Of a stretch of DNA of 64,000 bases, positions 2,310 through 45,813 are shown in pieces. How positions within the stretch are numbered: the first letter of the stretch is position 1; each line of letters begins with the position of its first letter. The DNA is from a virus. Its lineage: Duplodnaviria > Caudoviricetes. The notes below the pieces were generated by a model, which worked only from the letters and a program-made list of their open reading frames with translations, had not been told where the DNA came from and made no database searches. The DNA lies in IMG/VR virus record IMGVR_UViG_3300037067_012588; one strand, written 5' to 3'. A program made the translations under genes and the position numbers.

Positions 2310-2459
2310 TTAATCGGCTTCTGTGTTTGATTCTGTTTTTTGACTCTTAGATTCATCAGTGTAAAATCCTTCAAACACTTCACGAGAATCATTTTCAGAA
2401 CCACAAACGCCAAACAACAAATCGATACCAGAACTTCTTACCTCTACATCAACTTCCAC
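2310..2459 (-). CDS. small acidic protein
   Basis: GTG after GGAGGT. Confidence 0.45.
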   Translation of the reverse strand: MEVDVEVRSSGIDLLFGVCGSENDSREVFEGFYTDESKSQKTESNTEAD

Positions 2460-2553
2460 GATAACTACCTCCGATACAAAACAGTCTCTCAAGTGCGAGA
2501 GACACCACAACCGCCAACAAAGCGGATTGAAACGCCTTCAGGGAGTTTGAATC

Positions 2554-2581
2554 ATCATACATCACTAAGCCAGAAAGTCAA
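2554..2581 (-). promoter_or_regulatory. sigma70-like promoter
   Basis: TTGACT-16-TATGAT. Confidence 0.55.
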
Positions 2582-2627
2582 CAAAAATAATTTTCAGGAT
2601 GAATTATATTACTTTGCCTTTCTCTTC

Positions 2628-2846
2628 TCAACAACTTCCTTCATCCCGATCATCTTCCTTGGAGTTCTCGAACCGAATCCAGTCTGCCTTCAATGGCAAC
2701 ATACTCGTGTTATGCCTTGCAGCACAATCAGGACACACTGGAACGTCTTTCTCCTCACACCACCAACGAGTCTCTTTCCCGCAAAGGCAACAAGACTCAG
2801 CAGGAGCATCTGCAAAATCGGCAGGTTCGTGGACAATCTTAATCAT
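2628..2846 (-). CDS. small Zn-ribbon protein
   Basis: CCLCG...VCPDC, GAGGAG RBS. Confidence 0.7.
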   Translation of the reverse strand: MIKIVHEPADFADAPAESCCLCGKETRWWCEEKDVPVCPDCAARHNTSMLPLKADWIRFENSKEDDRDEGSC

Positions 2847-2865
2847 AATACCTCCTCTGGCGAAA

Positions 2866-3045
2866 TCACTTGAACTTGATGTTCTTCAGTTTCCCGAAAA
2901 GAATCTTCTTCTTTTTGTGCTTGCGGATAAATCCAGCAATACACCTATACGAACAAAAGAACTGGTGTCCTGTTCCTGCTGCTGTCCCGCTGCCATTACC
3001 TGTCAGCGCCTGACACAAAAAGCATCGATTTACCTCGCTCGACAT
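2866..3045 (-). CDS. 59-aa TRASH/YHS-like metal-binding protein
   Basis: hand-translated: CFLC...FFCSYRC. Confidence 0.55.
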   Translation of the reverse strand: MSSEVNRCFLCQALTGNGSGTAAGTGHQFFCSYRCIAGFIRKHKKKKILFGKLKNIKFK

Positions 3046-3047
3046 GG

Positions 3048-3314
3048 CTATTCTCCAATCACCTCGATGGTAACACGGACACGTTTGCCGACAAACTTGC
3101 GAAGCAACTTGTGACGTTCATCCTTGTCGGGGTTCACGTCGTAGCTTTGAAGCTTAACGAACATATGATCCTCGTCGGCTTGGTCCTTCTTGTACTCGGG
3201 AAACACTGTCCTCTTAGATTCGTCAATGTCGGCAACCATCGCCTGTCCGCTGTCTTCCATCTGAACCCACACTTGTGGAACAGTTCCATCGAAAACAATC
3301 TTCGTTCCTTCCAT
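3048..3314 (-). CDS. hypothetical protein
   Basis: ORF in gene chain with RBS. Confidence 0.7.
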   Translation of the reverse strand: MEGTKIVFDGTVPQVWVQMEDSGQAMVADIDESKRTVFPEYKKDQADEDHMFVKLQSYDVNPDKDERHKLLRKFVGKRVRVTIEVIGE

Positions 3315-3664
3315 TATACACCTTCCTTTGCATTAACCTTCCTGAGAAGGAACATGACCTTTTCAATCTTCGGGTGATTTCCGTTCCGAATACGGACGTT
3401 CCGCAATAACCATTTCCAGTCCCGATGAATCAGCCGTTCGAACGGCAAGTCCATTGTCCTCATCAGGTCCAAAAGACGGACATACGGCTCCTTGCGAGCG
3501 TCATAGCGCACCTTGCCAGTTCCTTCGCACGAAGAACACTTCGGCGAGCCATTGTGGTCATATCGTCCAGTGCCGTTGCAAGCATTGCACACTCTGAGAC
3601 GCCACATGTAAACGTTGTTCCAGAAGTGACTGGTACGTTTTGCTTTATCTTCGTGAAAAGACAT
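3314..3664 (-). CDS. DnaJ-type Zn-finger protein
   Basis: CNACNGTG and CSSCEGTG (CxxCxGxG) repeats. Confidence 0.75.
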   Translation of the reverse strand: MSFHEDKAKRTSHFWNNVYMWRLRVCNACNGTGRYDHNGSPKCSSCEGTGKVRYDARKEPYVRLLDLMRTMDLPFERLIHRDWKWLLRNVRIRNGNHPKIEKVMFLLRKVNAKEGV

Positions 3665-34413: not shown

Positions 34414-34752
34414 TCAGTAGTTGAACGACTTCTCAGCTTCAGCGGACAACTCAACCTCCATCCGCTCAAGTGAAGCCTCAACTCCGTCAACACGAACGAC
34501 ATAGACAACAGCGCACTTCTTTTCATCGAACCGTGTTTCCAGTACCATCGCCTTCTTGTTGTTCATCCGCAGATAGACGATGTCACCAGAAGAGAAAACT
34601 GGTTTGTTCTTTTTCTCCTTGGCTAACGCCTCAGCATGGTTTCTTTCTGCCAAAGCCTTGGCTCGTGCCAATGCTGGAACCAGAATAGCAGCCAGAATAC
34701 CAAGAATTGCAAGGATAATAGCAAACTCGATGAATGTAAAACCCTTCTTCAT
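34414..34752 (-). CDS. type IV prepilin-like protein
   Basis: MKKG|FTFIE class III signal, hydrophobic helix, PALARAK. Confidence 0.8.
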   Translation of the reverse strand: MKKGFTFIEFAIILAILGILAAILVPALARAKALAERNHAEALAKEKKNKPVFSSGDIVYLRMNNKKAMVLETRFDEKKCAVVYVVRVDGVEASLERMEVELSAEAEKSFNY

Positions 34753-35453
34753 ACTGTCAACCCCCTTTCTCCCGCAAGGTGCATTTCGGCAGATTCGCCC
34801 ATCTTCTTGCCATGACTCGCCCAATCCACCCACGAATCCAAGGCGAAATTGGCAAAAATCGGGTTGCCATACTTGGCGTGCCATTCCTTCACGTCAGCCC
34901 GAAGGCGTTCAAGGATGTCAATCTGAACGTTGTAGCTGTTTTCACCACCCCAACCATCATTGAAAACCGAACCGACAACCTTGCCATTCAGGGTGATTTT
35001 TGCAGAGAAGGGTATGGAATCGTCATGCCCATGCTGACGCTTGTACGAAGTGATGTCCCACTTGTCCATTTCGCTCGGTTCATCAGCCTTCGGCGCAGCC
35101 GCTGGGGTGAATGAACTTGCGGGTGCTTTGACCCACGACGAACCACCTTCAAAGAACACCTTCATGAACGGACGGTTGATTTTGTATGTGACCTTGTCGA
35201 CAATACCAAGATGAGTCTCGCCCTTCACGGTGTAGTTAACCCAGTCGCCCTTCTTGAACTGGCAGGGAACCAATTCGGGGAGCGGAGCGGCACTCAGACG
35301 GAAATTCTTTTCCATCGACCTGATAGCACCGCCACCATTGTCGATGTTCATTCTGACCATACGATACACACCCTTGTCTTGGATGTTGCTGATGATACCG
35401 TACAGGGTCTTACCATTGTGGTCGATTTCGGCTCGCATTCCCTTACCAAGCAT
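34749..35453 (-). CDS. hypothetical protein
   Basis: 234 aa, AAGGAG RBS, NDGWGG motif. Confidence 0.75.
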   Translation of the reverse strand: MLGKGMRAEIDHNGKTLYGIISNIQDKGVYRMVRMNIDNGGGAIRSMEKNFRLSAAPLPELVPCQFKKGDWVNYTVKGETHLGIVDKVTYKINRPFMKVFFEGGSSWVKAPASSFTPAAAPKADEPSEMDKWDITSYKRQHGHDDSIPFSAKITLNGKVVGSVFNDGWGGENSYNVQIDILERLRADVKEWHAKYGNPIFANFALDSWVDWASHGKKMGESAEMHLAGERGLTV

Positions 35454-44768: not shown

Positions 44769-44987
44769 TTATTCTGAATTTGACTCAATCATCGTAATCT
44801 CAACAGCGTAAGGACACTCTGGATACCGATACCCTTTTTGTTCACCTGTTGGACTCCTAAAGATGCAGTTGCCATCCTCTATCCGCTTCTGTTGAGCTTC
44901 ACGGATAATCGCACAAAGTGAACCATGAACTGGTTTTTCACTCATTGTCGAATCAGCACACCTCGAACAAAGAGACACCCTATCCAT
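44769..44987 (-). CDS. CPxxxEH family
   Basis: LCSRC...C...CPYAVE. Confidence 0.7.
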   Translation of the reverse strand: MDRVSLCSRCADSTMSEKPVHGSLCAIIREAQQKRIEDGNCIFRSPTGEQKGYRYPECPYAVEITMIESNSE

Positions 44988-45800
44988 TCTTCCTCATCTT
45001 CGGCTTGATGTATTCCTTGTGAAAACGCAAAGCCACATCCGCAATATCCTTCGTCAAGAACGTCATCGCCTTATCCTTGAGCTCTTGAGGAACACCACCA
45101 TAATACGCCTCGGCAATCGAACCCGCAATCGCCGCTTGCGTGTCCGTATCCCCGCCAAGAGAAATGGCAGTACGAACCGTGTCCTCATACGAAACAGACT
45201 CAAGAAAAGCAATAATGGCTTCAGGAACGGAACCTGCACAGGACGAGTCAAATTGATACCCCGGACGGATATCTTTGATCTCTCGATTGAGATTGTATTC
45301 GAACGTCTTCTCGACAAAGCTCTTGATTTCGAGCTTGTCGGCTCCTTGCCGTGCCAACAGAATCGCAGCCGCCGTCGCTTGCGCACCCTTTACGCCTTCA
45401 GGGTGATTGTGGGTCACAGACGCCGTTTCCCTTGCAGCCTTGAGAACGCCCTCCATGTCGTCATGAAACCACGCCACGGGGCTTACACGCATCGCTGAGC
45501 CATTCCCAAACGAACCATACGGCTGCGGGTCTTTCTCAGCCATCCAATCCCTGAACCGACCACCAAACCCACGATTCGGATAACGCTTGGCATATTTCAG
45601 GATTTGTCCCTTGAAGTCGCCATCCGACATAAGAGCATCAGCGACGGCAACGGTCAGCACCGTGTCATCGGTAAAGCCGACCTCTTTCCCTTGCGGGTGT
45701 TTGCAAAGAAATCGAACTCCTTGCTCTTCATGTGAAACGGCGATTTACGCCCACGCTCAAACGTCGAGCCGACAATGTCACCAATGATAACGCCAAACAT
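44980..45800 (-). CDS. ADP-ribosylglycohydrolase (DraG/ARH family); full length requires a -1 frameshift near 45684-45690
   Basis: MFGVIIGDIVGS (frame 0), FTDDT, SFGNGSAMRVSP, GGDTDT (frame -1). Confidence 0.9.
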
Positions 45801-45813
45801 CAAACCTCTCCTC

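Follow-up and report, generated by a model that had tools for sequence, protein, structure and literature searches.

The tail assembly chaperone gene pair G/GT of lambda is a described phage system in which two reading frames are joined by a −1 shift at a GGGAAAG heptamer; both of its products function, the ratio between them matters, the arrangement is conserved across tailed phages and the shift reportedly needs no stimulator. In E. coli, G_GGA_AAG ranks, given a stimulator, among the three heptamers that shift to −1 most efficiently (PMC5009743; PMC4066793), and 3′ stimulators usually begin 5–9 nt after the heptamer (PMC5009743), while slippery heptamers that lack a stimulator shift at only 2–10 times the background of 0.055% (PMC4066793). 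A second described class is ‘compensatory’ frameshifting at an indel in a slippery run, as in the G-run mutants of herpesvirus thymidine kinase (PMC5009743). Phage genes for enzymes that remove ADP-ribose are also known to be broken in nature: adfN (30.3) of RB69, which encodes an ADP-ribose eraser, is interrupted by a single-base insertion and is intact in relatives (bioRxiv 10.1101/2024.07.11.602962).

Here we describe an ADP-ribosylglycohydrolase (ARH) gene that is divided between two reading frames. It is an accessory gene of an uncultured jumbo phage of roughly 345 kb and belongs to the short bacterial and phage subfamily of the ARH3/DraG superfamily. We analysed it within a window of 64,000 nt, the whole stretch of DNA that was available to us, in which everything described for the gene lies on the minus strand. 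The features of the locus, from upstream to downstream, are as follows.

45816–45814, minus strand: stop codon (TGA) of the upstream gene, directly 5′ of the Shine-Dalgarno-like GAGGAGAGG
45805–45813, minus strand: Shine-Dalgarno-like GAGGAGAGG, separated from the downstream ATG 45800 by 4 nt
45654–45800, minus strand: frame-0 N-terminal reading frame, opening at ATG 45800, 48 codons plus TGA (45656–45654)
44980–45747, minus strand: −1 frame with the remainder of the ARH gene (FTDDT, HNHP, GGDTDT), ending at TAG 44982–44980
45684–45690, minus strand: heptamer G_GGA_AAG, which is also a G3A3 run; frame-0 codons AAG, GGA, AAG
45652–45682, minus strand: RNA hairpin GGUCGGC-UUU-ACCG-AUGACA-CGGU-GCUGACC, with a 7-bp lower stem, UUU bulge, 4-bp upper stem and 6-nt loop
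45658–45660, minus strand: GTG start chosen by gene callers for a 226-aa product (P0001), downstream of FTDDT
44769–44987, minus strand: downstream gene for a 72-aa four-cysteine mini-protein, whose ATG overlaps the ARH stop (ATGGATAG)

The initial annotation had described an N-terminus in frame 0 that stops after 48 aa, with FTDDT and the rest of the enzyme in the −1 frame, and every part of this arrangement is present at the coordinates given. Judged from its sequence, the ribosome binding site GAGGAGAGG ahead of ATG 45800 is a strong one. The frame-0 reading frame contains the N-terminal G-D-I-V-G-S-x-x-E motif of ARH enzymes (as GDIVGSTFE) and closes with RSALPMTRC, a tail translated out of frame. 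A −1 offset between the frames falls within 45704–45679, and the ARH gene is thus not one continuous reading frame. Upstream of GTG 45660 the −1 frame contains no ATG, GTG or TTG, and GTG 45660 itself lies 4 nt upstream of the frame-0 TGA (GTGCTGA). It is the truncated 226-aa product that is on record for this gene, on a contig of 344,634 nt.

Assignment to the family is secure for the portion encoded in the −1 frame, which scores 122.7 bits against Pfam PF03747 (cut-off 26.2) and matches PHROG 6572 (ADP-ribosylglycohydrolase) with an E value of 1e-47. All three ARH motifs, the N-terminal GDxxGxxxE, TDD(T/S) and GGD(T/S)DT, were found, but across two frames. ARH3 is the best solved relative (E 3e-22) of the closest homologue, a 277-aa protein from a JGI contig of 3,827 nt that is ~70% identical to the window enzyme (P0002); the YTDDT and GGDTDT motifs of ARH3 are aligned in this comparison, with FTDDT of the homologue opposite YTDDT. 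The window gene therefore belongs to the same family as the enzymes of the ARH3/DraG type (PF03747; PDB 6g1p, 2foz, 2woe) and has their G-D-x-x-G-x-x-x-E, TDDT and GGDTDT motifs, and it differs from them in being a short form of ~270 aa, of a bacterial and phage subfamily, that is split over two frames. Members of this short subfamily (~255–280 aa) are common in bacteria, sometimes as a DUF1810 fusion, and occur in phages of Porphyromonas and Bacteroides as well as in huge uncultured ones. By analogy with the NADAR erasers of phages, the intact enzyme may serve to reverse ADP-ribosylation by host defences. Two homologues are of unusual build. The ARH encoded at 2398–3579 (plus strand) of an IMG/VR contig of 183,649 nt (L003) has an extra N-terminal region of ~130 aa that is absent from the window form and from bacterial forms, and a 301-aa homologue from an ENA contig of 387,924 nt (P0003) contains an exact internal tandem duplication of ~43 residues (AMRVSPVGFAYN...GAQATAA), which could be real or an assembly artefact.

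The neighbours of the ARH gene are small genes of unknown function together with an adjoining dCMP deaminase. The adjoining 636-aa protein has relatives of ~40% identity on IMG/VR phage contigs of 157–529 kb, and the 286-aa gene upstream of ARH has no relative in IMG/VR. No tRNA genes were found in the 64-kb window. The 72-aa gene downstream, which shows a CxxC...C...CPYxxE pattern, is presumably translationally coupled to full-length ARH; from the overlap of its ATG with the ARH stop, early termination within ARH may lower its expression. Elsewhere in the window, a small reading frame at 34414–34884 (minus strand) contains an N-terminal signal resembling that of type IV pilins (KKGFTFIEF ahead of a hydrophobic helix), a surprising feature for a jumbo phage; the likely start of the frame is an internal ATG after the stop of the gene upstream.

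Comparison with the closest homologue places the change of frame within a short interval. The homologue reads KEFDFF-KKWEH-GKEV-RFTDDT in one frame, whereas the window has KEFDFF-ANTRK-GK in frame 0 and GKEV-GFTDDT in the −1 frame. From FDFF to GFTDDT there are 26 nt in the window as against 27 nt (9 codons) in the homologue, so that exactly one base is missing or one base is read twice, and by homology the frame switch is confined to these 26 nt. The in-phase GGGAAAG that had been noted at 45690–45684, in the interval where the switch must occur, is present as described and is phased X_XXY_YYZ, which makes tandem −1 slippage possible. A restored product was built by script, joining the two frames with −1 re-reading of G 45684. 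The joined protein is 273 aa long and shares 191 identities with the homologue over 270 alignment columns, with a single gap that is away from the junction. A −1 slip at the heptamer, with the predicted junction GK/EVGFTDDT, does restore a colinear enzyme. Identity to the homologue amounts to 26/32 in the N-terminal part and 160/226 in the C-terminal part; since both halves are equally well preserved and the motifs are intact, the break appears to be young.

To place the break among its relatives, we tested by tblastn 122 homologous loci from IMG/VR, metagenomes and two related jumbo phages. Among the loci that could be assessed, 119 of 120 are continuous from the N-terminal to the C-terminal motif, and a further 2 are cut by contig ends. 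The initial annotation had proposed to look for conservation of the break in relatives and had named continuous homologues, along with a reporter that shows no shifting, as what would speak against its reading; continuity is what we found, both in the closest homologue and in 119 of the 120 loci. The sole other broken locus (L107, 3889–4672, plus strand, contig ODWU01000009.1) loses its frame directly behind the FTDDT codons, apparently through insertion of a single base, and no slippery heptamer is present there; its sequence at the break is ..GAT GAT ACT ACT ATG TAC C... This locus indicates that ordinary breaks occur in the ARH family at ~1%, none of which recurs at the window site. Break and heptamer together are common to identical copies only, and no diverged relative has them. 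The database holds no protein between ~70% and 100% identity to the 226-aa product, and the break is therefore without evolutionary depth. No intact allele of the window ARH is on record. Searches of GenBank phages gave no match by DNA and a best match of 53% identity by protein; IMG/VR contains no close relative of the window ARH, and metagenome homologues among the matches listed are at most 59% identical. In the related jumbo phages no syntenic ARH was found beside the gene for the 636-aa protein: 2 of 10 relatives carry a PF03747 gene, both intact and elsewhere in the genome, and the one that we compared is 29% identical. This sporadic occurrence, with no syntenic copy, marks ARH as a dispensable accessory gene.

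The heptamer and the hairpin differ in how unusual they are. GGGAAAG occurs 11 times in the window against 9.8 expected and is not enriched. In-phase XXXYYYZ heptamers begin at ~0.5% of the codons in the reading frames of the window, which gives a chance of ~5% of an in-phase heptamer in a zone of 9 codons; as a rough estimate, a homopolymer deletion at random would fall on such an in-phase heptamer 1–2% of the time. The hairpin at 45682–45652, folded alone, has a minimum free energy of −16.1 kcal/mol (z −4.3) and is the most stable of 109 orthologous 34-nt segments, those of the 108 homologue loci averaging −5.0 kcal/mol and none falling below −13.8 kcal/mol. Hairpins this stable are found at 19 places in the minus strand of the 64 kb, about once per 3.4 kb, and the probability that so stable a hairpin starts within 15 nt downstream of a random site is ~0.006. 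Folding of the 96-nt context is not unusual (z −1.4). The inner stem, ACCG/CGGU, arises from the T-D-D-T-V codons and recurs in intact homologues; the outer stem, GGUCGGC/GCUGACC, depends on codon choice for E-V-G and V-L-T. The frame-0 stop falls in the 3′ arm. The hairpin had been described as closer than usual for a stimulator, and so it is: the spacer between heptamer and hairpin is 1 nt, a single unpaired A, compared with the usual 5–9 nt. From this geometry, a ribosome with the slippery codons GGA and AAG in its P and A sites would have opened most of the 7-bp lower stem, leaving an upper stem of 4 bp, ~11 nt away, that would be weak. No SD-like 5′ stimulator was found 10–14 nt upstream of the heptamer, and the site accordingly has neither a 3′ structure 5–9 nt away nor an SD-like element on its 5′ side. 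Given that lambda G/GT reportedly works without one, the missing stimulator is in itself compatible with a programmed frameshift. Two other roles for these elements were dismissed: the hairpin is not a terminator, as there is no T-run, and AGG after the heptamer does not act as a rare ‘hungry codon’, being common here (57/301 Arg codons in long reading frames).

Several explanations can be offered for the divided gene. A sequencing or assembly error, with the phage DNA really reading A4 or G4 and the gene intact, would fit a break within short homopolymer runs in a gene that is otherwise flawless. The identical truncated call of 226 aa is nevertheless found on two JGI contigs and on one ENA/Logan contig of a different length (11,785 nt), whose protein (P0121) is identical to P0001 and differs only in how the GTG start is written. 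All three records may go back to a single set of reads. An intact gene would be called at ~273 aa and none is among the matches, so at least two assembly pipelines agree on the break, and its presence on three contig records makes an assembly error unlikely. Runs of 3–4 bases are not error-prone in short-read data, and the window contains no other convincing frame break on the same strand, although the heuristic scan on which this rests yielded ordinary gene overlaps only and was so insensitive that it did not recover the ARH break itself. We consider an error distinctly unlikely. The proximity of stop and start in GTGCTGA, and the prediction of the 226-aa piece by gene callers, might instead suggest a two-piece enzyme, made as a 48-aa peptide and a 226-aa piece by termination–reinitiation at GTG 45660. 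FTDDT, however, lies 5′ of this GTG, is specified by the −1 frame alone and has no start codon before it in that frame, so that neither piece would have the motif that aligns with YTDDT of ARH3; no homologue shows such a design, and we rejected it as highly improbable. An alternative genetic code is irrelevant, since the halves differ in frame and not by a stop codon.

The proposal of the initial annotation was a selected, programmed −1 frameshift at G_GGA_AAG that, as in lambda G/GT, would set a low and tuned level of the enzyme, with the 48-aa product discarded. Its identification of GGGAAAG as the lambda heptamer is correct, for the heptamer and its phase are identical in the window, as is the setting in a double-stranded DNA phage, and an in-phase heptamer of the class most prone to shift in E. 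coli (PMC5009743; PMC4066793) speaks in favour of programming. So do the exceptional stability of the hairpin relative to its orthologous segments and its low probability near a random site, the retention of a strong ribosome binding site with both halves intact and an exactly colinear junction, and the occurrence of the same broken allele on all three contig records with no intact allele known. In contrast to lambda, the frame-0 product of the window is a 48-aa stub, the gene encodes an accessory enzyme and the arrangement is found in no relative. The continuity of the homologues, the hairpin spacing, the predicted melting of the lower stem and weakness of the upper one, the unexceptional folding of the wider context, the origin of the inner stem as a by-product of conserved codons and the lack of an SD-like element upstream all argue against a selected device. 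Its frame-0 product has no plausible function, so that a programmed shift would do no more than reduce expression, for which a weak ribosome binding site would be the simpler means. To our knowledge, programmed frameshift sites have very seldom been found beyond tail chaperones, transposases, dnaX and prfB, which weighs further against one here. Tuned expression by a programmed shift is not borne out by these comparisons, and the sequence is accounted for in full if a homopolymer run has lost one base. We therefore regard programming as rather unlikely, and it is equally doubtful that G_GGA_AAG and the abutting two-stem hairpin keep the output of an enzyme, presumably one of counter-defence, to a few per cent of what is initiated at the strong ribosome binding site.

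The explanation that we favour, with a probability of roughly 0.6, is that the break in ARH is a recent and genuine indel, possibly leaky, and not an evolved programmed frameshift. One base would have been lost in the G3A3 run at 45690–45684, turning AAG GGA AAA GAG or AAG GGG AAA GAG into AAGGGAAAGAG; taking one A from GGA AAA GAG, or one G from GGG AAA GAG, yields the observed string letter for letter with G-K-E-V kept. The zone contains four short runs (AAA, CCC, GGG, AAA), in any of which the deletion may have occurred. Translation from ATG 45800 would then mostly end after 48 residues, producing a stub that would carry the catalytic Glu motif and lack the TDD and GGDTDT metal-binding motifs. 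With the deletion in a heptamer prone to shifting, a minor share of ribosomes probably slips to the −1 frame and makes the full 273-aa enzyme, a leak that we infer to be between ~0.1% and a few per cent; in our reading the frameshift allele would be leaky by accident and not through selection for control. The coincidence of the break with a heptamer of the best class, exactly in phase, and with an unusually stable adjacent hairpin counts against a recent indel, as do the lack of visible further decay and of an intact allele on record. It is also conceivable that a stable DNA hairpin promotes slippage of replication at a short run beside it, in which case hairpin and deletion would not be independent.

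The window ARH resembles the compensatory class (PMC5009743) in that a one-base indel in a run leaves a useless non-shifted product and low slippage can restore some full-length protein, and differs from it in the run itself, which is no long homopolymer but a short G3A3 stretch that makes up a classical tandem-slippage heptamer. With RB69 adfN it shares the inactivation, by a one-base indel, of a phage accessory enzyme that removes ADP-ribose; AdfN, unlike the window enzyme, belongs to the NADAR family and not to PF03747, and the adfN break lies close to the C-terminus and involves no slippery heptamer.

Were the shift selected after all, programmed −1 frameshifting in phages would extend past tail chaperones and mobile elements to the control of enzyme dosage, as a frameshift in a non-structural phage enzyme with a throw-away frame-0 peptide, and the locus would offer a stimulator of unusual geometry to study. 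If the break is an ordinary recent indel, as we favour, the locus matters mainly for annotation: the proper record would be a frameshifted ARH, in place of a 226-aa ‘ADP-ribosylglycohydrolase’ with neither FTDDT nor the catalytic motif of the N-terminus. The locus would then be a further case, like RB69 adfN, of the loss of an accessory ADP-ribose eraser by a phage.
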